From Acidobacteriota bacterium (GTDB taxonomy: Bacteria > Acidobacteriota > Thermoanaerobaculia > UBA5066 > Gp7-AA6), in NCBI GenBank assembly GCA_039931865.1, contig JBDTRB010000005.1, forward strand, positions 137 through 64,136: DNA of 64,000 nucleotides, read 5' to 3'. The notes under the pieces are model-generated. The model ran no database searches and was not told where the DNA came from. It was given only the letters and a program-made list of their open reading frames with translations. The translations under genes were made by a program, and so were the position numbers. Of the stretch, positions 37,565-51,630 are shown one piece after another. Within the stretch, counting starts at the first letter, position 1. Every line of letters begins with the position of its first letter.

Positions 37565-39058
37565 ATGGAAAACGAACCCCGACATCCCCCGCATTCGCCC
37601 GGCCCCGCCGCCGTGCTTCCGACGGCAGAGCGGCTCGAGGCAGACCTCCGGTTTTCCGGGCGTGGAATCACGATCGCATTCCTCGATGCCGGGTTCACCG
37701 CGCACCCGGATCTCTTCGAAAGCGGCCGGATCGTGGCCTTTCACGACGTAGAGGACCCGGCCGCCGGGCTGCCGCCCTCGGGCCTCGTTGCGCCCTGGCA
37801 GTGGCACGGAACCCAGACGTCCGTCGTCGCTGCCGGCGACGGCACCCTTTCGGACGGGGCCTACCGGGGACTGGCATCCTCCGCGCGGCTTCTCCTGGTC
37901 AAAGTCGGCCGCGAAGGCTCGATCCACGACGAGGAAATCGCCCGCGCCTTCGAATGGCTTCTCGAAAACTTCCAAAAGTTCGGGGTGCGGATCGTCAACG
38001 TGTCCCTGGGAGGCGACCAGGACCTCGCGCTTCCCGAAAGCCGGGTGAATCAGCTGGCCGAGGAGGCGGTGTCGCGAGGTCTGGTCGTCGTTGCGGCGGC
38101 TGGAAATTCCGGCGGGAAGAGCGAGCATACGGCCCTTCCGCCCGCGTCCGCGCCGTCGGTGATCACCGTGGGCGGGTACCACGACTGGCGCTCGGAGGAC
38201 GGACACTCCTTCGTTCTCTATGCGTCGAGCTTCGGCAGCACTCCCGACGGACTGGCCAAGCCGGAGCTGATCGCCCCCGCGATGGAGGTCGCGGCGCCCA
38301 TCCCTCTCGAGACACCCGAGTACCGCGCCGCGGAGGCTCTCTCGGCGCTGGCCGCGGCGGACGACGAAGAGCTTCCATCGCTCTCCGCGCGGCTGGGCAA
38401 GACGGCGGATCTCCCCGAAGAGCTCCGGAGCGCGGAGCCCGGAGCGATCCGGGAGGCCGTCAAGATGAGGCTGAAGGAGAGAAAAATCGTCGCCGCCCAC
38501 TACCAGCACGTCGACGGCACTTCGTTTGCGGCGCCGATCGTCACGTCCATCGTCGCGCAGATGCTGGAAGCAAACCCGGCGTTGACGCCCGCCGAGGTGA
38601 AGGCGCTGCTCGTCTCGACCGCCGAGCGGATCGAGGGAGCGCCCGCCGAACGGCAGGGGTTCGGCGTCGTGCACGCGGGTCGCGCCGTCGAAGCCGCGGC
38701 GGAACAGGGATTCCGAGAAGCGCCCGGCCCCGCGACCCTGCTTCAGACGCCGCGGATCGAGAACGGTCGCGTCATTTTTCTTTACCGCGACGACCGGGCG
38801 CGGCGCGTATGCCTTGCGGGCGACTTCAACGGGTGGGACGGCCAGAGCGCCCGGTACGAGCGTGAGCCCGACGGCACGTGGAAGGCCTCCATCGAGGCTC
38901 CTGCCGCGGGGCGGTACCGGTACAAGCTCCTCATCGACGGTGTCCACTGGCGGGAAGATCCGGGAAATGCCGCGCGAGACGTCGATCCGTTCGGCGGGTT
39001 CGACTCGATCCTGACGATCCCGATCCCGCTCCCGCTTCCAATCCCGCTCCCGCTCTGA
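37565..39058 (+). CDS. S8 subtilisin-like serine protease with C-terminal CBM48/glycogen-binding-like domain
   Basis: Triad FLDAG / WHGTQT / DGTSFAAP, oxyanion AAAGN; C-terminal VCLAGDFNGW..GRYRYKLLIDGVHWREDP. Confidence 0.9.
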   Translation: MENEPRHPPHSPGPAAVLPTAERLEADLRFSGRGITIAFLDAGFTAHPDLFESGRIVAFHDVEDPAAGLPPSGLVAPWQWHGTQTSVVAAGDGTLSDGAYRGLASSARLLLVKVGREGSIHDEEIARAFEWLLENFQKFGVRIVNVSLGGDQDLALPESRVNQLAEEAVSRGLVVVAAAGNSGGKSEHTALPPASAPSVITVGGYHDWRSEDGHSFVLYASSFGSTPDGLAKPELIAPAMEVAAPIPLETPEYRAAEALSALAAADDEELPSLSARLGKTADLPEELRSAEPGAIREAVKMRLKERKIVAAHYQHVDGTSFAAPIVTSIVAQMLEANPALTPAEVKALLVSTAERIEGAPAERQGFGVVHAGRAVEAAAEQGFREAPGPATLLQTPRIENGRVIFLYRDDRARRVCLAGDFNGWDGQSARYEREPDGTWKASIEAPAAGRYRYKLLIDGVHWREDPGNAARDVDPFGGFDSILTIPIPLPLPIPLPL

Positions 39059-42310: not shown

Positions 42311-45300
42311 TCAGTCGAACCGAACCGAGACGATCTTCGAGCAGCCGGGCTCCTCCATCGTGACCCCGTACATGACGTCCGCGGTTTCCATCGTCCGTTT
42401 GTTGTGGGTGATCGCGATGAACTGCGTGTCGTCGGTCATGTCGCGCAGGAGCTTCGTGAAGCGGTCGATGTTTGCCTCGTCGAGGGGAGCATCGACCTCG
42501 TCGAGAATGCAGAACGGGGAGGGTTTGTAGCGGAAGATCGCCATTAGCAGGGCGATCGCGGTCAGCGCCTTTTCGCCTCCGGAAAGAAGCTGAATCGACT
42601 GGTTTCGCTTTCCGGGCGGCTGCGCGATGATCTCGACCCCGGACTCGAGAAGGTCGTTGTCGTCCAGAAGGCGCATCTCGGCGGCGCCTCCTTGAAAGAG
42701 ACGCGAGAACATCGCCTTGAAGTTCTCATTGACCGCCTCGAACGCCTGCCGGAAGCGTTCCGAGGACGTCGCGTTGATCTTGCGGATCGAATCCTGGAGC
42801 TCGGCCACCGATTTCAGCAGGTCGTCGCGCTGCGCGGTCAGAAACAGGAGCCGCTCCGAGCTTTCGCGATGTTCCTCGAGCGCGAGGAGGTTGACGGGTC
42901 CGAGTCTCTCGATGGACGCCGCGAGCGTCGCGACCTCTTCCTCGAGGGCCGTGAGCGCCTCGGGAGAGCGATCTTCCGGAGCGTCCAGGGAGCCCGGCGG
43001 GACACCGAATTCCTCCTGTGCCTGGGCTGTCGCGTGGTCGAAGTCGGATCGGATCCGCGTCTCGCCGACCTCCGCTTCGAATCGCGCTTCGCGGGCCGCG
43101 TCGAGCGTGGCGCGCTCGCCTTTCGTATTCTCCTCGGCGGCGAGCACGCGGGCTCCCGCTTCCGTCGCCGTCGCGGACGCGGCCTCGAGCTCTTCCGACG
43201 CGGTCTCCCGCGCTCTGATGTTCCCCGCTTGCCGCGCTCGGGCTTCCGCCTCCTCGCGCGCGAGCTCCTCCGCGCGTTCCGTCAGACGCCGCCCCTCTTC
43301 GAACGCGTCTCCCATCCGCCGCTCCAGCATTCCCCGCGCTTCGACGAGCTTTTCTCGCGCGGCTTCGAGCGAACGCCGCCTCTCGGCCGCGACCTCCGCC
43401 TCCGTTCGCCGGTGGGCGAGCTCATCGGCCGCCGCGGCCGCAAAGGAGCGCGCCTCGGGCAGCGTGCTGGCGAGTTTTTCCGCGCGCTCGCGAATCGACG
43501 CCTCCCGGGTGCCGTGAGCCCGTTCGTCGGCCTCGAGCGCGGAGCGGGCGCCCGCCAGGCGTTCGGACTCCTGGCGGAGAGCGACGGCCTCCGTTTCCAG
43601 CGTCTCTCGCTCTCGCGCCAGTCGGTCCCGTTCGGCGCGCCGCTCTTCGAAACGGGCCACGAACCCGGAAAGCCGACCGTTCGCCTCGCGCTCCCGGTCG
43701 CGCCTGGCCGGCATGGCCGCCTCGCATTCGTGCCGCGCGCGGCGAAGGTCTTCGATCGACCGGTCGAGCGCCGCAACGCTTTCGCGGGATCGGGCGGTTT
43801 CGAGCCCTAGGCGGTCGATGTCGCGGCGGAGGGCGAACAGGCCGGACGCCTCGGGAGGCGTGTGGACGACGCGAACGAGCGAGCCGCGGACGAGCTCTCG
43901 CCGGCGCGTCACGAAAGTGGTCTCCGGGTGGATGAGGGAGAGCTCGAGGGCCGCAGCCAGCGTCGAGACGAGGGCAACCGGGGGAAGCGCCGCGCGCTCC
44001 GCGGGGGAGAGGCTGGTGAAGTTCTGAAGCGCGATCTCCCAGCCGCCCTCGGTTCCCGGGACCCGCGAGCCGCCGCGCTCGTCGGTCCAGGCGCTTCGCA
44101 CGAATGTCGCCGAGGCGAGTCCCCGCGACGCCTCGACCGCGGCCTCGGGATCGCCGCCGCAGACGATCGCTTCGAGGTCGTCTCCCAGAAGAAGGTCGAC
44201 CGCCTCCTCCCATCCGGCCGCGGGCGTCAGCCGGTCGGCCAGCGCTCCCGCTTCCGCGATGCCCGCGGCGGCCAGCGCGCCCCGGACCGCGTGGAGATTG
44301 CCCTGCCGGCTCTTCCAGATCTCGTTCAACGCTCCCAGGCGGTGCTCCGAGTTGGAGAGGCCCTCGCGCGCCGTCTCGCGCGCGACCTCGGATTCCGCGA
44401 GCGCGGCGGCGAGGCGGGAGAGCTCCGCCTCCCAGGCCTCGGTTTGAGCCCGCGCGTCCGCCGCCTCCCGGCTCAGGCGCCGCTCCTCTTCGAGAGCGGC
44501 CTCGACTTCCTTTTCCCGCAGCGTGAGCTCCGAGACCGCCCGCGCGTGCGCTTCCTCGAGCCGGGCCAGCGAAGCGGTGGCGCGAGAGGCTTCGAGGTCC
44601 ACCTCGTGACGCGCGTTGCGGGCGGTGACTCTTTCGCCGGCGGCGAGAAGCGCGTCCTCTCGCGCCCGGTCGAGCTCGCGCTCGAGCTCCGCGAAAGCGG
44701 AGGCGGCCGCTGCGGCCCGGCTGTCCGCGTCTTCGCGGGCCAGGGAGCGGGAGCGGGCCTCGACGACCGCGCGCTCGAGCCGCTCCTCGAGCTCCGTGAG
44801 CTCCGCGGCGGACCTGGTCTGCTCGGCTGAGACGTCGCGGCCTTCTCGCTCGAGCGAGGCGCGGCGGTCGGCGAGATCCGCCGCGGCGCGACGGTTGCCC
44901 TCGAGCAGCGCGTCATCGCGCTGAATCGCGTTTTCGAGGGCAGCGACCGCGTCCCGGAGACGGTCGCGTTCGGCCTGCAGATCCGCGGCCGCGAGCCGTG
45001 CCGACGCGAGCTCCGATTCCGCGCGGCCAAGCGCGGCCGCGGCCGCGGCTTCGACGTCGCGCCGCGCGTCGCGCGCCTGCTCCGCTTCGGCGACCGCCGC
45101 CTGGAGCACGTCGTGCCGCGTTCTCGCGAGGGCCGCTTTCTTCCCGCGAAGCACGTCGGATTGCTCGCGGTACTTCGCCGCGCGAGACGCCTGCCGCTTC
45201 AGGGACGCGACGTTCTTCTCGATCTCCGACACGATGTCCGAGATCCTCAGAAGGTTGCCGCGCGTCTCTTCGAGCTTGCCTTCCGCGAGCCGCTTCTTGA

Positions 45301-45928
45301 GCTTGTATCGCGTGATGCCCGACGCCTCTTCGATGAGCCGCCTCCGGTCCTGCGGCTTGGTCGAGAGCACCTGATCGATGCGTCCCTGCTCGATGACGGA
45401 ATAGGCGCGCACGCCGAGCCCGGTGCCGAGCAGCTTGTCCTGAATGTCCTTCAGCCGGACCTGCTTGTCGTTTAAGAAGTATTCGCCGGTGCCTTCGCGG
45501 TAGACCCGACGCCCGATCCGCAGCAGGTCGCCCTCGGTCTCGCTTCCCCCGTTCCCGTTCCCGGCGCCGTGGCCGTTTTCGCCGCCGCCGCCGCCGCCGC
45601 CGCCGCCGTCCGCCCCGTCCCCGTCGCCGTTGCTCTTCCCGTCCTGACGCGCGCTCACCCGGGCGCGGGTCGAGAGCGTCAGGATCACCTCGCACATTCC
45701 GAGCGGGCGCCGTTTGGCGGAACCGTTGAAGATGACGTCGTCCATGCGCTCGCCGCGGAGCGTCTTGGCGCTCTGCTCGCCGAGCGCCCACGAAACCGCG
45801 TCGCTGATGTTCGATTTCCCGCACCCGTTCGGCCCCACAACCGCCGTGACGCTGCCCGGAAATGCGAGATCGACCTTCTCGTAGAAGGACTTGAAGCCCG
45901 AGATCTGCACCCGCTCGAGTTTGAACAT
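42311..45928 (-). CDS. smc: Chromosome segregation protein SMC
   Basis: GFKSF, GPNGCGKSN, long coiled coils, LSGGEKAL, LDEVDAPLD, ITHNK. Confidence 0.96.
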   Translation of the reverse strand: MFKLERVQISGFKSFYEKVDLAFPGSVTAVVGPNGCGKSNISDAVSWALGEQSAKTLRGERMDDVIFNGSAKRRPLGMCEVILTLSTRARVSARQDGKSNGDGDGADGGGGGGGGGENGHGAGNGNGGSETEGDLLRIGRRVYREGTGEYFLNDKQVRLKDIQDKLLGTGLGVRAYSVIEQGRIDQVLSTKPQDRRRLIEEASGITRYKLKKRLAEGKLEETRGNLLRISDIVSEIEKNVASLKRQASRAAKYREQSDVLRGKKAALARTRHDVLQAAVAEAEQARDARRDVEAAAAAALGRAESELASARLAAADLQAERDRLRDAVAALENAIQRDDALLEGNRRAAADLADRRASLEREGRDVSAEQTRSAAELTELEERLERAVVEARSRSLAREDADSRAAAAASAFAELERELDRAREDALLAAGERVTARNARHEVDLEASRATASLARLEEAHARAVSELTLREKEVEAALEEERRLSREAADARAQTEAWEAELSRLAAALAESEVARETAREGLSNSEHRLGALNEIWKSRQGNLHAVRGALAAAGIAEAGALADRLTPAAGWEEAVDLLLGDDLEAIVCGGDPEAAVEASRGLASATFVRSAWTDERGGSRVPGTEGGWEIALQNFTSLSPAERAALPPVALVSTLAAALELSLIHPETTFVTRRRELVRGSLVRVVHTPPEASGLFALRRDIDRLGLETARSRESVAALDRSIEDLRRARHECEAAMPARRDREREANGRLSGFVARFEERRAERDRLARERETLETEAVALRQESERLAGARSALEADERAHGTREASIRERAEKLASTLPEARSFAAAAADELAHRRTEAEVAAERRRSLEAAREKLVEARGMLERRMGDAFEEGRRLTERAEELAREEAEARARQAGNIRARETASEELEAASATATEAGARVLAAEENTKGERATLDAAREARFEAEVGETRIRSDFDHATAQAQEEFGVPPGSLDAPEDRSPEALTALEEEVATLAASIERLGPVNLLALEEHRESSERLLFLTAQRDDLLKSVAELQDSIRKINATSSERFRQAFEAVNENFKAMFSRLFQGGAAEMRLLDDNDLLESGVEIIAQPPGKRNQSIQLLSGGEKALTAIALLMAIFRYKPSPFCILDEVDAPLDEANIDRFTKLLRDMTDDTQFIAITHNKRTMETADVMYGVTMEEPGCSKIVSVRFD

Positions 45929-46095
45929 CGTGTTCACGAATCTAGCAAAAGCCCCGGGAGGGGTCCACAACTTATTGTGGCCGCGGCAGGAGGGGATACC
46001 AGATGGGGTGCGTCCAGCCCTGGCGCTGGTCCCGTGCGGGCTGTACGGTGGCGTGCAGATTTTTGTTCAGATCCCGGCAGGTTTGATGTACGTTA

Positions 46096-47172
46096 TTGGC
46101 GGACAAGAAGACAAAAATGCTGAACTTGGAAGTCCGCAAACGCGCGGGAGGGGCGGAATTGCATCGCGTGCTCGGCACGGCGATTACCGTCGGCGCCTCT
46201 TCCGGCAACGAAGTCGTCGTTCGCGCGCGGGGGGTTGCGGGCCGCCACATCCGTTTCGTCGAGAAGGACGGCCGCTACCAGCTCGACCTCTATAAGGGTG
46301 TCGACGCCATCACCGTGAACGGCCGCGAATTTTCGGGCGGACCGATCGCGGCGGGCGATCGCATCACGATCGGAGAGGCGACCATCACGGTTGTCCAGGT
46401 CGGCAGCAACCCCGGGCGGCCCGCGCCGGTCCACGAGATTCCCATCAACGACGCGTCATCGTCCTCCCCTGAGGCGTCTGCCGCGCCAGCGACGGAAGTC
46501 GAATATCGCGCCCTGCGGCTTTCCGCCTACCGCCTGTGCCGGCAGCACGACAGCCCGGAGGAAGTCGCGATCGCTCTGACGGACTTTCTGGATCAGGAAT
46601 TTGCCCCTAGCGAGTGGGCGGTCGGCCACGTGACGGCGGCAAACGGGTTCCGGTTTCTCGCATCGACGTTCGTGGACCAGCCGGCGCTTCCTCCGAGCCT
46701 TCTCGAGGAGGTCCGCGGGGGCGAGCGTGTGGTCCGCTCCGAGAGCGTCGCCGGAGTGCTCACTCTGGTCGTCGAGAACGCGGCTTCGGACGGCGCCTTC
46801 GCCATCCTCGTGCGCGAGAGCCCGAGGCTTCCCGCGAGAACCATCCTCTTCCTCGAAGAGGCCGCCCAGCTGGCGGGAATCGCGGGTCGCCGCTCCGAGC
46901 GGGGGCCCGCCGCGGCGCCCGCGCCGGTCGTCGTCGAGCCTCCGAACGAGGATGAGATCGACGCGGTCCTTCGCCAGACCGATGACCTGAAGAAGATCGT
47001 CGAGACCGTCGAGCGCGAGGTCATCGACCGCGCGATGCGGCGCGTTCAGGGAAATCAGAGCCGGGGCGCCGAAGTCCTGAACATCTCGCGCGGCTCGCTG
47101 ATCGCGAAGCTGAAGGAGTACCAGGTCCCCGACTATCGCTACCTGCGCCGCGACCGCAACAAGCGCACCTAG
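46096..47172 (+). CDS. FHA-like domain plus central domain plus Fis-type HTH protein, no AAA+ core
   Basis: ITVGASSGNEVV..VAGRH..ITVNG..GDRITIG (FHA-like); VEREVIDRAMRRVQGNQSRGAEVLNISRGSLIAKLKEY (HTH_8). Confidence 0.75.
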   Translation: MADKKTKMLNLEVRKRAGGAELHRVLGTAITVGASSGNEVVVRARGVAGRHIRFVEKDGRYQLDLYKGVDAITVNGREFSGGPIAAGDRITIGEATITVVQVGSNPGRPAPVHEIPINDASSSSPEASAAPATEVEYRALRLSAYRLCRQHDSPEEVAIALTDFLDQEFAPSEWAVGHVTAANGFRFLASTFVDQPALPPSLLEEVRGGERVVRSESVAGVLTLVVENAASDGAFAILVRESPRLPARTILFLEEAAQLAGIAGRRSERGPAAAPAPVVVEPPNEDEIDAVLRQTDDLKKIVETVEREVIDRAMRRVQGNQSRGAEVLNISRGSLIAKLKEYQVPDYRYLRRDRNKRT

Positions 47173-47205: not shown

Positions 47206-47790
47206 TCAGCGCCTGGCCTTTTTTTCCCGCCTCGCCGGACCCTTTCTGACTTCCGGATCGGTCGGCTCCCGCCAGGCGAGCGGCCACCAGATCGCAAACG
47301 GTGCCGCGAATCGGCCGGCGATCTGGTACACGTGGAACGCGGCGGCCCACGCGTTGCGCGCGAAAGCGCCGTAGTTCGCCTCGCTCCAGGCGCCGAGCCG
47401 CGTGGCGTAGAGCGATTCCACCTGGCAGCAAAGCGCGGCGACGTGGACGACGTACAGCAGCGCGAACGCGAGCAGCACGCGTGAGCCTCTGGCCGGCGGA
47501 AGCGCGGCGAGCAGCGCGGCGAGGATCACCAGGTTGAAGTGGAGATCCGCGGCGGGGAGACCGGGGCGCGGGGCGGCCGGAGGAAAATCGCTCCTGTCGA
47601 TCACGAACTCGCCGCCGCGGGGGGTCAGCCGCGTGACCGCGGGATGCTCACCCAGCCGGAGCAGCGATTCCGCGGCGAAGGCGACCGCCCGCTCGTAGGG
47701 CGCGGAAAGGGCGAGCCAGAGCGCCAGACCCACGGCGAACCCGGCGGCTCCGCGCAGGAGCGCGCGTCGCGCCGCGCGTGAGACCGTCAC
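47206..47790 (-). CDS. Exosortase-associated integral membrane protein
   Basis: GTG 47790 overlaps the exosortase stop; ~4 hydrophobic segments and a basic tail. Confidence 0.7.
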   Translation of the reverse strand: MTVSRAARRALLRGAAGFAVGLALWLALSAPYERAVAFAAESLLRLGEHPAVTRLTPRGGEFVIDRSDFPPAAPRPGLPAADLHFNLVILAALLAALPPARGSRVLLAFALLYVVHVAALCCQVESLYATRLGAWSEANYGAFARNAWAAAFHVYQIAGRFAAPFAIWWPLAWREPTDPEVRKGPARREKKARR

Positions 47791-48341
47791 GCGTTTTCGG
47801 GAGAGGCCCCGCTCTTCTGTCGGGAGGCCCACAGGAGGAACAGCAGGACGCCGGCGAGCACGACAGCTGACTGCCAGATGACCGTGTGAGCGCTCGAGAA
47901 AAGAGCGGGGTGGTGGCGGCCGATCCAGAAGAGCGAGACCACCCGGACGAGGTTGATGCACTGGATCGCCACGAAGCCGAGCAGAAGACCGACGCCCCGC
48001 GCCTTCCAGGAGGCAGGGAAGGCGAGCACCGCCGCACAGAACAGCAGCGCGGTCTCGACGCCGTTGCAGCCGTTCTCGATGTCCACACCGAAGCCCGACG
48101 CGCGGATCTCCGTCCCGACGACGGTGACGCGTTCCTGGAGCACGTTTAAGACCGCAGCCGATGCATGCGCGACGCCCGCGGTGAAGGGTACGATGACGTG
48201 ATCGTTCACCGGCGTCCACGAGACGAGAAGCGCGAAGCCGATCAACAGGCCGAGGAAGCGGGCCAGAAAGAACCACGAGCGCCGCCGTCGCGCGGCCGCG
48301 TCAGCCCCGTTGTCCGCGGGGCCCGAAGAAGCTACCTTCAC
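47787..48341 (-). CDS. xrtH: Exosortase/archaeosortase-family transpeptidase, XrtH-like
   Basis: VDIENGCNGVE (catalytic Cys), INLVRVVSLF (Arg), AHTVIWQ (His); short multi-TM protein. Confidence 0.8.
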   Translation of the reverse strand: MKVASSGPADNGADAAARRRRSWFFLARFLGLLIGFALLVSWTPVNDHVIVPFTAGVAHASAAVLNVLQERVTVVGTEIRASGFGVDIENGCNGVETALLFCAAVLAFPASWKARGVGLLLGFVAIQCINLVRVVSLFWIGRHHPALFSSAHTVIWQSAVVLAGVLLFLLWASRQKSGASPENA

Positions 48342-48808
48342 GCGGTCCCCTTTCTATCCTGATCTTCCTGGTAGGCAACCATCTCCGACACAAGCGTTCG
48401 CAGGTCGCGCGGAAGCGCGAGGAGGAGCTCTCCCGACGCGTTCAAGACGACCTGTTCCGTCACGGCGCTCGCGAGGAGCTCGCCTCCCGCGTCGCGGATC
48501 TCGTAGTCGATCTCGAGCCGCGCGACCGTGGGGGGTCGAAGACGGGCGCAGACGCGGATGTCCGTGTCGGCGAGAGCCGGGCGGCGGTACCGGATGTCCA
48601 TCCGGGTGATGGGCACGCGGTATCCGATCGACAACGCCTTCGTGGCCGTAAACCCGAAACGCCGTGTGAAGGCTTCCCGCACCTGCTCGAGGTACAGAGC
48701 GTAATGCCCGTGCCACACGACCGCGTAGGAATCGCACTCCGCAAATCGCACGGGAATCGTGATCTCGAAGCCTTTCAGCGGAGCGGCGCCCGATCGAACC
48801 GCGCTCAC
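48338..48808 (-). CDS. Hotdog-fold acyl-CoA/ACP thioesterase (4HBT/YbgC-like)
   Basis: VRFAECDSYAVVWHGHYALYLEQVRE; GTG 48808 overlaps the upstream stop. Confidence 0.88.
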   Translation of the reverse strand: MSAVRSGAAPLKGFEITIPVRFAECDSYAVVWHGHYALYLEQVREAFTRRFGFTATKALSIGYRVPITRMDIRYRRPALADTDIRVCARLRPPTVARLEIDYEIRDAGGELLASAVTEQVVLNASGELLLALPRDLRTLVSEMVAYQEDQDRKGTA

Positions 48809-49947
48809 GCGGCCGCCGCCGGCGATTCCAGGACGGCCGCGAGAAAGTTTCCCCCGGCGCCGAACGAGTTGACGAGGGCCCGCCTCCGCCGTCCGTCCTC
48901 GGGGAAGGGCCCGTCCGGGTCCGCGATCGCTCGCGTCGCCGCCACGAGCTGCCCGCCTCCGGACGCGGCGGCTTCGCCCATCGCGTGCTTGACGGCGAGC
49001 GCGCGCGGCGGCGCTCCGAAAATCTCCCGCATCACGTCGGCCTCGGCGCGGTCCATCTCGACGACGCCGTTCGCGGAGGGGAGCCACAGCCCGACCTCTG
49101 AGGGCGCGACGCGGGCGTCTTCGAGCGCGCCCTGGATCGTCCGGCGGATCGCGGCAGGATCCGGAGCGAAGCGGTACGGGTCCGTGGGGACCCCCGCGAA
49201 CCCGATTCCCGCGAGGCTCGCCAGAGGCCGGACGCCCCGGAGGCGCGCGGCAGCTTCGGTCTCGACGAGCATCGCAAAGCCGCCTTCACCCTGCACGATG
49301 CCCGAGCGCCGCCTGTCGCCGCGCAGCGCGCCGACCCGGTCGAATCCGAGGGCGTAGATGGCGTTCCATTCGTCGACCGCGCCGGCCAGCATCGCGCGCG
49401 CCCGCCCGGATTCGAGCGCCAGGACCGCGTACAGAAGCGCGTTTAAGGCAGAAGGGTCCTTCTGGGTGATCGTGACGTTCGGCCCGAACAGCTTCAGCTC
49501 GATCGAGACCTGCGAGGCGGGGGCGTTCGCGACCGTGTTGGGAAAATGAAACGGCGGCGCGGCTTCCGGCGATTCCAGGAACAGCACCCGCAGAAACTCG
49601 GTCAGCGCGCCCGCCCCGGCGGACCCGGTTCCCATCGCGATTCCAATCTCCTCGGGAGCGGCGGCGACGTCGAAGCCGGCCTCGCGAACCGCCTCGAGAC
49701 ACGAGACGATCGCGAACTGGCTTCCGCGGTCGAAGCGGCGTGCCTTCATGGGGGGGATCTCCGGCTGCGGCGAAAAACCGTCGCAGCGCGCCACTTCGAT
49801 CGCCTGCAGCCCGGCGCGTTCCTCCGCCGTCATCGGACGCACGGCCGTCTCGCCGGCGAGAAGGCGCCGATAGAACTCCTGCGAGCCGCGCCCCAGGGGC
49901 GAGACGGCGCCCGTCCCCGTGATCCACCCTCTCGACGCCAAGCTCAG
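48805..49947 (-). CDS. Catalytically inactive ketosynthase (chain-length-factor-like)
   Basis: KS fold (ITGTGAVSPLG, FPNTVANAPAS, GEGG), but active-site TTACSSS becomes TQKDPSA, NAHGT becomes PSANG and KSMIGH becomes KHAMGE; CTG start inferred. Confidence 0.82.
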   Translation of the reverse strand: MSLASRGWITGTGAVSPLGRGSQEFYRRLLAGETAVRPMTAEERAGLQAIEVARCDGFSPQPEIPPMKARRFDRGSQFAIVSCLEAVREAGFDVAAAPEEIGIAMGTGSAGAGALTEFLRVLFLESPEAAPPFHFPNTVANAPASQVSIELKLFGPNVTITQKDPSALNALLYAVLALESGRARAMLAGAVDEWNAIYALGFDRVGALRGDRRRSGIVQGEGGFAMLVETEAAARLRGVRPLASLAGIGFAGVPTDPYRFAPDPAAIRRTIQGALEDARVAPSEVGLWLPSANGVVEMDRAEADVMREIFGAPPRALAVKHAMGEAAASGGGQLVAATRAIADPDGPFPEDGRRRRALVNSFGAGGNFLAAVLESPAAAA

Positions 49948-51167
49948 TAAACGCCGGCTTCCCGCGCGAAGACCACGACGGAGCTGTTGCCGCCGAACGC
50001 GAACGAATCGGAGAGAGCGACCTCGATGTTGCCTTCCCGCGCGTTGTTCGGAACGTAGTCGAGATCGCAGGCGGGATCGGGGTTGTCGTAGTGAATTGTC
50101 GGCGGGATCTTCCCGTCCCGCACGGTGAGCACGGTCGCGACCGCTTCGATCGCCCCCGAGGCGCAGAGGCAGTGCCCGATCATCGACTTGATCGAGGAGA
50201 TCGGAATCTCGCGCGCCCGGCCCCCCAATCCCATCTTCAACGCCGCCGTCTCCGCGGAGTCGTTCTGCGGCGTCGCGGTTCCATGGGCGTTGACGTAGTC
50301 GACGTCCTCTGCGTTGATCCCGGCAGCCGCGAGCGCGGAGCGGACGGTGCGCCCTCCGGCGGCCCCGCTCGGGTCGGGCGCGGTCATGTGGTGCGCATCC
50401 GAGGTGACGCCGTAGCCCAGGAACTCCGCCAGAATGGGGGCGCCGCGACGCTTCGCCCGCTCCCACTCTTCGAACACGAGGATGCCGGCCGCCTCGCCGA
50501 TCGAAAGCCCGCGGCGCTCCCGGTCAAACGGGCGGCACGGCTCGGGATCGACCGAACGCAGCGAATTGAACCCGCCGTAGGTGAGCCGCGCGAGGACGTC
50601 GGATCCGCCGGTGATGATGACGTCCGCGAGCCCCGCCGCGATCGCGTCGTGCGCGAACCCCATCGCGTTTGCGGACGAAGAGCAGGCCGTCGTAATCGTC
50701 GACTTGATGCCCTCGACGCGAAACCGCTGCGCCACGCGATCCGTGATGGCGTCGGGCAGGTGGTTCAGGACGTGCGAAGGCCGGCCCTTCTTTCCGTGGA
50801 GGTGTTGCTCGTAATACGCCTCAGAATCGAGGAGGCCCGACGTCCCGCCTCCCAGGATCACGCCGACGCGTGCAGGATTTTCCCGCGAGAGATCGAGGCC
50901 CGACTGCGCGATGGCCTCGCGCGCCGCGGCGAGCCCCATCCGATCGGCGCGGGACGTGCGCTTTCTTTCCGAAGCTGAGAGAAACCCGTCCGGAATCTCC
51001 AGAACCTGCGCCGCGGTCTGCGTGCGATAACCGGAGGGATCGAACAGGGAAAATGGCCGGATGCCGCACGTCCCCTCGAGGAGCGCTTTCCAGAAATCCG
51101 TCACGTTCGTGCCGATCGACGTCACGGCTCCCAGACCGGTGACAACGACGCGCCGGGGTTTGTCCAT
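49944..51167 (-). CDS. Beta-ketoacyl-ACP synthase (FabF/KAS II-like, Cys-His-His intact)
   Basis: VVTGLGAV, TTACSSSAN, YVNAHGTAT, KSMIGHCL, SFAFGG. Confidence 0.93.
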   Translation of the reverse strand: MDKPRRVVVTGLGAVTSIGTNVTDFWKALLEGTCGIRPFSLFDPSGYRTQTAAQVLEIPDGFLSASERKRTSRADRMGLAAAREAIAQSGLDLSRENPARVGVILGGGTSGLLDSEAYYEQHLHGKKGRPSHVLNHLPDAITDRVAQRFRVEGIKSTITTACSSSANAMGFAHDAIAAGLADVIITGGSDVLARLTYGGFNSLRSVDPEPCRPFDRERRGLSIGEAAGILVFEEWERAKRRGAPILAEFLGYGVTSDAHHMTAPDPSGAAGGRTVRSALAAAGINAEDVDYVNAHGTATPQNDSAETAALKMGLGGRAREIPISSIKSMIGHCLCASGAIEAVATVLTVRDGKIPPTIHYDNPDPACDLDYVPNNAREGNIEVALSDSFAFGGNSSVVVFAREAGVY

Positions 51168-51420
51168 GAGACCGGCAATTCTACAGCGGGAGGAGAGTGA
51201 AAACGTCAGCTGTCAGGTGTCAGCTGCCAGCTCTCAGCCTTCGGCCGTCCTTCGCTTGCCGCGAGCGGGTGGCGGGCGGTCGGCCTCACAGCGCGAAGAC
51301 GATCGGGAGGGTCGTGAACAAACGCCGACAGCCTTCTGAGGCGTCGCCTTCAGGGTTGATCCCGGCGCGTTCCACGGCGGAGGTACGATCGATGGTCTGG
51401 GTGGGAATAGGAGACTTCAG

Positions 51421-51630
51421 ATGAAAACGATGACATGCATAGAGCTCGGCGGGAAGTGTGACGAGAAATTGTCGGCTGGATCCTGGGACGAGATGGTGAA
51501 GGTCATGACGAAGCACGTCATGGAGAAGCACCCGGACGTCGCGAAGGAAATGGAAAAGATGCACAACCAGGATCCGAAAAAGTGGGGCAGCGAAATGAAA
51601 CCGAAATGGGATTCGGCCCGTGAAGTCTAG
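51421..51630 (+). CDS. Small metal-binding protein (DUF1059-like)
   Basis: MKTMTCIELGGKCD..KHVMEKH C-x6-C and H-x4-H pattern; AGGAG RBS. Confidence 0.8.
   Translation: MKTMTCIELGGKCDEKLSAGSWDEMVKVMTKHVMEKHPDVAKEMEKMHNQDPKKWGSEMKPKWDSAREV

Follow-up and report, generated by a model that had tools for sequence, protein, structure and literature searches.

A ketosynthase–exosortase H operon in one family of uncultured soil Acidobacteria, probably built of two separable modules

We know of no bacterial exosortase whose acceptor molecule has been identified by experiment. The locus described here consists of five minus-strand open reading frames (ORFs) at positions 47206–51167 of a 64-kb window of contig JBDTRB010000005.1, the window being the whole stretch of 64,000 nucleotides that was analysed. 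It places a β-ketoacyl synthase (KS), a catalytically dead KS paralogue resembling a chain-length factor (CLF) and a thioesterase (TE) ahead of exosortase H (XrtH) and a membrane protein, its partner. This raises the question of whether the fusion of acyl-chain and protein-sorting genes reflects shared chemistry; if it did, the operon would point to the exosortase acceptor and make that question testable. The original prediction, made from this DNA, was that the product of KS–CLF–TE is used by XrtH to anchor surface proteins. The comparisons presented here do not support that inference, as each module also occurs alone, and they do not refute it, as the linkage is tight and widely kept among the closest species. 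The operon, which is found in one family of uncultured soil Acidobacteria, is probably made up of two separable modules, co-transcribed here through inherited gene order and neither needing the other. Related genomes keep both parts apart, so that adjacency alone is no proof of joint function.

Gene content of the operon

The source genome was assembled from a metagenome; it comprises 4.0 Mb in 234 contigs and is 89% complete. The named homologues belong to Thermoanaerobaculia, phylum Acidobacteriota. The order KS–CLF–TE–XrtH–partner is formed by the following genes:

49944–51167, minus strand: KS (P0001), FabF-like, 407 amino acids, Cys-His-His intact; assigned from profile scores
48805–49947, minus strand: catalytically dead KS paralogue, CLF-like (P0002), likely start TTG at 49941; assigned by alignment
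48338–48808, minus strand: hotdog thioesterase (TE, P0003), 4HBT_2, YbgC/FadM-like, 156 amino acids; assigned by Pfam
47787–48341, minus strand: exosortase H (XrtH, P0004), a short exosortase of 184 amino acids with the triad Cys92/Arg133/His152; assigned by TIGR04177
47206–47790, minus strand: XrtH-associated membrane protein (partner, P0005), 194 amino acids; assigned by a match to NF041730 below its cut-off and by position

Profile scans, together with an alignment and gene position, bore out all five identities that had been proposed from the sequence. The KS falls into the β-ketoacyl-ACP synthase II subfamily NF005589 (413.2 bits, cut-off 387; ACP, acyl carrier protein) and below the housekeeping fabF equivalog TIGR03150 (416.5 bits versus 493.75). 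It is located outside the fab cluster, as the housekeeping fabD-fabG-acpP-fabF genes are on contig C1. Its catalytic residues are intact (Cys162/His/His, in the motifs TACSSS, HGTAT and GHC), and the second protein carries Asp, Ser and Glu, respectively, at the same three alignment columns (alignment A1), confirming the proposed design of an active KS beside a dead one. The CLF-like protein matches the N- and C-terminal ketoacyl-synt domains only, with a best NCBIfam score of 133 bits, far under all cut-offs. Where the active-site Cys would stand, the orthologues of this protein likewise have an acidic residue, Asp in those of the order and Glu in a genome of another class (G047). The hallmark of the chain-length factor (KS-β) of aromatic type II polyketide synthases (PKSs) is a Gln at this position, and it is found in neither. 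The KS also misses the KS families of aryl-polyene systems of the E. coli type (NF005490, NF006587 and NF006618, with 230, 247 and 304 bits against cut-offs of 445, 470 and 407), and P0002 scores far lower. Among solved structures, the dead partner best matches chain C of 9s5h, an entry with two different KS chains, and the ishigamide and actinorhodin KS/CLF pairs rank lower. A literature search for papers naming PDB 9s5h or 9s5i found none of relevance, and the reading of 9s5h as the anammox heterodimer discussed below is unverified.

The TE passes the broad models 4HBT_2 (Pfam, 49.1 bits, cut-off 25.5) and 4HBT alone, staying under the YbgC/FadM subfamily cut-off (TIGR00051, 40.2 versus 68.7 bits). 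Typing of the exosortase gave XrtH, as proposed: it scores 117 bits against TIGR04177 (cut-off 86), and other exosortase types are below their cut-offs, the next best being XrtM with 71 (125) and XrtX with 60.7 (170).

Linkage within the order

Gene order was compared among 41 genomes of the same order, which includes families f1, f2 and f3. Genes in the fetched loci were called with our own heuristic, based on ORFs and third-codon-position GC content, and with tblastn; absences here and below mean 'not found' in metagenome-assembled genomes. The samples include unpublished genomes (G013, linked; G030, unlinked, f3; and G003, G024 and G088), and no conclusion rests on any one of them alone.

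XrtH is present in 34 of the 41 genomes, in 33 of them above the cut-off. Seen from the XrtH side (30 loci), the partner follows in every case, and TE and CLF precede in 15, the remaining 15 being unlinked. The linked genomes represent five genera of family f1, and the unlinked ones three further f1 genera together with families f2 and f3. CLF orthologues (45–97% identity) were found in 37 of the 41 relatives, with KS directly upstream every time, and the CLF side of 33 loci is arranged as follows:

TE, then XrtH directly: 14 loci
Loosely linked (G031: XrtH 1.6 kb from TE, KS–CLF 7 kb further on): 1 locus
TE, then an FHA-Fis regulator, no XrtH: 5 loci
TE, then neither XrtH nor FHA-Fis within the locus: 9 loci
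No TE after CLF (G040): 1 locus
Locus cut by the contig end: 3 loci

The TE stays with KS–CLF where XrtH lies elsewhere. In six unlinked genomes (G021, G017, G028, G036, G035 and G037), KS–CLF–TE is located between the cytidine-deaminase gene and the FHA-Fis and SMC genes that also flank the operon in the window, without XrtH, and in these same genomes XrtH and its partner are elsewhere, beside UvrA, DnaE or an S41 peptidase. In several genera and in two sister families, the trio keeps its position on the chromosome with no XrtH beside it, and the FHA-Fis regulator adjoins it in genomes where trio and XrtH are unlinked too.

The partner accompanies XrtH in the same way across a wider range. 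A scan of the Genome Taxonomy Database (GTDB) covered the best 80 of at least 533 XrtH relatives (alignment A3), all Thermoanaerobaculia-like and biased to close relatives. In all 29 loci of relatives and in 71 of 76 GTDB loci, XrtH is followed immediately, on its own strand, by a partner homologue. Judged by gene order, XrtH and the partner are one constant pair and KS–CLF–TE is a separate constant trio.

The loosely linked locus of G031 (L075:1595–13757) has a peculiarity of its own: its TE match lies at the end of a 1,172-residue open frame, which could reflect a gene fusion or an error in frame calling.

Each module without the other

Beyond the order, a sample of 301 Acidobacteriota genomes was searched, 32 of which have XrtH above the cut-off. 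The original prediction would have the KS and TE genes stay with xrtH in most relatives. Outside one family they are unlinked: 15 of the 30 loci in the order are linked, and KS–CLF–TE was found beside XrtH in none of 20 loci from other families and classes, where the neighbours are varied housekeeping genes. In 10 of 20 loci from more distant classes, a partner homologue lies beside XrtH, a count limited by the sensitivity of BLAST. XrtH and partner directly precede the gene for the chromosome-partition ATPase SMC in G312, G213 and G045 and in 8 of 32 unlinked GTDB loci, and thus XrtH is also tightly placed beside a gene that plainly has nothing to do with it.

The trio likewise occurs without the pair. 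Two genomes of the order (G040 and G032, both 96% complete) keep KS–CLF and a TE orthologue (49–50% identity), and a search of them for XrtH and partner found neither. In family f19, which belongs to another class, XrtH was found in none of three genomes (G047, G065 and G081), nor was the partner in the two that were searched for it (G047 and G081). G047 carries one contiguous cluster in the order deacetylase, acyltransferase (AT), ACP, dehydratase (DH), KS, CLF, TE, methyltransferase and glycosyltransferase; its KS is 52%, its CLF 36% and its TE 35–38% identical to the operon proteins, and G081 has the same KS–CLF–TE trio in the same ORF order. Together with the collinear gene set on contig C34 described in the next section, this cluster without an exosortase indicates that KS–CLF–TE is half of a split pathway, functioning elsewhere without an exosortase.

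Two possible markers were discarded. Counts of IPTL-CTERM cargo, the proteins presumably sorted by XrtH, are zero in G040 and G032 and also in the XrtH-positive G026, G015 and G023, so the cargo count was too insensitive to serve as proof of XrtH loss and was dropped as evidence. Matches to P0002 at E ≤ 1e-32 (24 of 301 genomes) undercount the trio across the phylum, as the XrtH-positive G213, G302 and G145 carry a divergent ACP–KS–CLF (CLF 31–33%), and lack of a KS/CLF pair in the families of these three genomes is therefore not claimed.

In two genomes of family f11 (L083:9054–9479 and L085:6844–7164), another 4HBT thioesterase, 26–28% identical to that of the operon, is convergent to the gene for the XrtH partner; in both, KS–CLF lies elsewhere and is not accompanied by TE.

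A dedicated acyl-chain set elsewhere in the genome

The original prediction expected an ACP and a ketoreductase (KR) to act in trans and suggested a scan for orphan ACPs, and a matching set is present elsewhere in the source genome:

Contig C34, 27073–31190 (L189:5074–9194): deacetylase-like protein, FabD-like AT, FabG-type KR, ACP, FabZ-like DH and two small ORFs

The two small ORFs, of 92 and 119 amino acids, match no family. The ACP is of the PRK09184 type (NF006617, 70.7 bits, cut-off 70), and the set is separate from the housekeeping genes on contig C1. It is collinear with the first half of the G047 cluster, with identities of 71% for ACP, 35% for AT, 28% for DH and 38% for the deacetylase. 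This contiguous, collinear cluster suggests that the C34 ACP would serve the operon KS. The same deacetylase–AT–KR–ACP–DH set is present in G023 and G027, and matches to the dedicated ACP occur in all six members of the order within the 301-genome sample.

As a marker across that sample, the dedicated ACP (E ≤ 1e-15) is found in 77 genomes; it lumps several kinds of type II cluster (G125 and G275 have MMPL/LolA-type ones), and the related genomes are not independent. It is present in 22 of the 32 XrtH genomes and missing from 10, and it occurs in 55 of the 269 genomes without above-cut-off XrtH.

A third KS of the genome, on contig C11 (5066–8931, L190), lies beside a methyltransferase and a LolA-like protein and could be one more scattered part of a gene inventory resembling that of aryl-polyene systems.

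Exosortase H, its membrane partner and its cargo

XrtH is a single-copy gene in the source genome. Of its triad, C92 and R133 are invariant and H152 nearly so among 20 diverse sequences, and all three are invariant in an alignment of 32. The partner scores 26.7 bits against NF041730, under the cut-off of 35, and the same model is matched by 11 of 26 aligned partner homologues (E ≤ 0.01; most are fragments). The idea that the partner is a degenerate XrtH paralogue is unsupported (hhalign probability 4%). The hhalign alignment of the two proteins (A4 for the partner, A5 for XrtH) is collinear and sets VDRSDFP opposite VDIENGCNG, at the same 4% probability, and homology is undetectable.

The sorting substrates, too, had been predicted to act in trans, to be sought by their tails. 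Twelve ORFs of the source genome end in a Pro/Thr-rich linker, an [IV]PTL[SDN] motif, a hydrophobic helix and RR; none of the 12 lies within the 64-kb window. Six IPTL-CTERM matches in the genome are above the TIGR04174 cut-off, and the Pfam IPTL-CTERM model matches 3 of 11 cargo proteins scanned. The cargo bodies are NHL or Vgb-lyase-like β-propellers, a β-helix, DUF11 and an ice-binding-like domain. On contig C60 (17143–22227), genes for three IPTL-CTERM-type proteins stand in tandem, and two of these proteins have virginiamycin-B-lyase-like β-propellers.

The S-layer protein of Methylomirabilis is reported to be of the IPTL-CTERM type (PMC8671808), so surface anchoring of such cargo is real biology. 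Our literature search found no experimental work on XrtH function and, among the papers listed, none joining an exosortase with a ketosynthase or a chain-length factor.

In one genome (G109, L087:6101–8433), XrtH, a partner homologue, a small PGPGW membrane protein and a PssA-like CDP-alcohol phosphatidyltransferase are encoded on one strand, recalling artA-pssA of Methanosarcina. PssA/Psd-like genes beside XrtH were considered as a recurrent archaeal-like trait and dismissed, as they occur at 1 of 134 XrtH loci, that of G109.

Comparison with known systems

The tail of the operon corresponds to the catalogued exosortase H/IPTL-CTERM system (TIGR04177, TIGR04174 and NF041730): XrtH is above the cut-off, its triad is kept, the partner is downstream and there are 12 cargo proteins, six of them above the TIGR04174 cut-off. 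It differs in that the pair here ends a five-gene operon headed by KS–CLF–TE, and in that the partner, with its 26.7 bits, stays below 35.

Aryl-polyene type II PKSs have the KS/CLF pair ApeO–ApeC and the thioesterase ApeK. The genes described here share with them a KS with an inactive partner, a 4HBT thioesterase, a PRK09184-type ACP, a DH and a KR, to which a methyltransferase and a glycosyltransferase are added in f19. In contrast to the aryl-polyene system, the KS proteins are below its KS-family cut-offs, the genes are split over two loci, and aryl-starter enzymes, an MMPL exporter and a LolA-like protein are absent at both loci (the operon and C34). The f19 cluster also calls to mind the Nod-factor genes, which encode the ACP NodF, the KS NodE, the deacetylase NodB, the methyltransferase NodS and the glycosyltransferase NodC. 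What the two have in common, by analogy only, is a separate ACP for a special acyl chain, along with sugar-deacetylase, methyltransferase and glycosyltransferase genes. The f19 deacetylase matches the NodB model weakly (1.5e-09), with all scores far below family cut-offs, and, unlike in the Nod-factor system, an acyl transferase of the NodA type was not identified in the f19 cluster.

A close parallel for the two KS proteins is the anammox pair amxFabF2/amxFabFmut, described in the available part of a preprint (10.64898/2026.05.19.726425) as a FabF/dead-FabF pair that is a working KS/CLF-like heterodimer on a dedicated ACP and starts synthesis by decarboxylating malonyl-ACP. Both systems have two adjacent FabF-type genes, one without Cys-His-His, and by this analogy the operon proteins may form a heterodimer as well. 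As far as that part of the preprint goes, the gene order is reversed (the dead copy is downstream here), the substitutions are Asp/Ser/Glu here and Val or Thr and Asn/Glu/Cys in anammox, and radical-SAM genes are absent here, unlike in anammox.

For the exosortase side, the available text of PMC7157517 describes ArtA-dependent lipid anchoring in Haloferax as needing PssA and PssD. The resemblance lies in a transpeptidase of the exosortase/archaeosortase superfamily standing beside lipid-synthesis genes in one lineage only. In the archaeal case, as that text presents it, the neighbours make an amine phospholipid head group and the link was demonstrated by knock-outs; here the neighbours are acyl-chain genes, and the link is hypothetical.

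Two separable modules or a shared job

In the reading that we prefer, the operon holds two modules that work apart. KS, dead partner and TE would handle condensation and release in a dedicated fatty-acid or polyketide-like pathway of type II, with the polysaccharide-deacetylase-like protein, malonyl-type AT, FabG-type KR, dedicated ACP and FabZ-like DH of C34 as its other half. KS and the dead partner most likely form a KS/CLF-type heterodimer, whose shared tunnel would set the chain length on the C34 ACP, and TE would release or proof-read the acyl chain. The pathway would probably supply the lipid moiety of a glycolipid or of an acylated polysaccharide, as suggested by the deacetylase and by the methyltransferase and glycosyltransferase of the f19 cluster. 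XrtH and its partner would be the known IPTL-CTERM sorting cassette, in which XrtH, a predicted Cys/Arg/His transpeptidase, presumably acting with the partner, cleaves roughly twelve secreted proteins at their [IV]PTLS-helix-RR tails and fixes them at the cell surface. The simplest history would start from XrtH–partner–SMC as the old arrangement; KS–CLF–TE would then have been placed upstream, either in the ancestor of the order or in that of family f1, and the XrtH pair would later have moved away two or three times.

Several observations weigh against this separation. Linkage is tight, as seen in the four-nucleotide overlaps inside the operon and in a TE–XrtH spacing of at most 42 nucleotides in the 48 linked loci wherever it was measurable (a rough figure, taken from alignment ends). 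It is also kept: of the best 80 GTDB species by XrtH similarity, 48 are linked, 29 unlinked and 3 have loci that are too short. Linkage changes number at least three on the KS+CLF tree (25 genomes) and at least two on the poorly resolved XrtH tree (130 loci, some species being in twice); with only two or three changes, linkage is not often lost, and in the trees the linked state looks basal in family f1. XrtH and partner are 1.6 kb from TE in G031, a member of the second family (f2), and linkage may thus go back to the ancestor of the entire order. The evidence for loss of XrtH comes from G040 and G032, two metagenome-assembled genomes at 96% completeness. Within the class, the dedicated ACP type and XrtH are mostly found together, a pattern confounded by kinship (about three differing lineages). 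The C34 deacetylase resembles the polysaccharide deacetylase of XrtA systems (TIGR03006, 171 bits, below the cut-off of 276). Finally, the available text of PMC7157517 has artA and pssA/pssD clustered only in Methanosarcina, yet functionally linked, so that patchy synteny is weak evidence against function.

These points bear on an alternative in which the split type II pathway makes a lipid or glycolipid whose amine or hydroxyl resolves the XrtH acyl-enzyme, so that IPTL-CTERM proteins become covalently lipid-anchored and the gene fusion marks a shared job. The tight operon, kept in 48 of the best 80 species, speaks for it, together with a linked state that looks ancestral in f1 and is nearly present in G031, and a trans-acting half whose deacetylase is related to those of XrtA loci. 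It also has precedents, as far as the available texts go, in ArtA, whose dependence on PssA and PssD was found via synteny in one lineage (PMC7157517), and in the IPTL-CTERM S-layer protein of Methylomirabilis (PMC8671808). We nevertheless consider it unlikely, because both modules occur alone (10 of 32 XrtH genomes are without the ACP type, the f19 cluster is without XrtH, and G040 and G032 keep only the trio), because XrtH and partner are equally tight beside SMC in other families, and because the TE product would be a free acid, which offers no nucleophile for transpeptidation, so that lipid anchoring would need further enzymes. Quite improbable is the more specific proposal that XrtH attaches IPTL-CTERM proteins to a dedicated glycolipid, with the acyl chain coming from KS–CLF–TE and the C34 set and a sugar amine freed by the deacetylase as the possible acceptor; if true, this glycolipid would be the first anchor molecule to be identified for a bacterial exosortase. 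A further alternative makes XrtH an unrelated neighbour and has KS–CLF–TE work with the housekeeping synthase (AcpP, FabG, FabZ and FabI), tuning bulk membrane fatty acids in chain length or by release of free or 3-keto acids. ACP, KR and DH were indeed not found in or beside the operon, both KS proteins are nearer to FabF-type enzymes than to polyketide KS/CLF families, and housekeeping genes surround the trio. However, the f19 trio is contiguous with a dedicated AT–ACP–DH, the source genome has its own collinear dedicated set, with 71% identity between the ACP of this set and that of f19, and the same set is present in G023 and G027, with ACP matches in all six order members of the 301-genome sample, which makes this account very improbable.

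Taken as separable modules, the operon shows two independent, already catalogued systems, and its practical value therefore lies in a caution against reading function from KS–CLF–TE/XrtH adjacency, in setting out more clearly a split type II acyl pathway found widely among Thermoanaerobaculia, and in a defined XrtH cargo list for anchoring tests.

Junctions, promoter and flanking genes

Of the four 4-nucleotide overlaps originally described between the five genes, three are true GTGA overlaps: CLF/TE at 48805–48808, TE/XrtH at 48338–48341 and XrtH/partner at 47787–47790. The fourth, KS/CLF at 49944–49947, is possible only with CTG as the CLF start. The first standard start is the TTG at 49941, which fits the N termini of the orthologues and lies two bases past the KS stop (49944–49946), making this junction an abutment and not an overlap. 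The same seven bases, CGCGTGA, occur on the minus strand at all three overlapping junctions (48805–48811, 48338–48344 and 47787–47793).

The features around the operon are as follows:

51178–51183, minus strand: −10-like box TAGAAT, 10 nucleotides 5′ of the KS ATG; supported by conservation among relatives
46096–47172, plus strand: FHA and Fis-type helix-turn-helix regulator, between operon and SMC; context gene
42311–45970, minus strand: SMC chromosome-partition ATPase; context gene

The TAGAAT box reported in the original prediction is present, and it is conserved in relatives, although the hexamer alone is within chance. It occurs twice in the window versus 3.6 expected, and a search upstream of KS for a full sigma-70 pattern found none; as a stand-alone statistical signal it was rejected on these grounds, leaving conservation to count. 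Of 44 related loci, 40 have a [TC]A[ACG]AAT box within 40 nucleotides 5′ of the inferred KS start; the 44 control windows, placed 80–120 nucleotides upstream, contain none. This conservation makes a promoter with a very short leader plausible, and the position of the box is plausibly that of a near-leaderless transcript.

Housekeeping genes lie on both flanks. Downstream, the FHA-Fis regulator, on the opposite strand, is followed by SMC, and the regulator is kept at the same place in 45 of the 48 linked loci. The upstream flank holds a cytidine deaminase, a PilZ-domain response regulator and a short-chain dehydrogenase/reductase (SDR). Farther off, at 37565–39058 on the plus strand, an S8 subtilase with a C-terminal CBM48-like domain has no relation to the operon. 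Between the promoter region of the operon and the cytidine deaminase gene lies a small plus-strand ORF (51420–51630) with an AGGAG-like ribosome-binding site.

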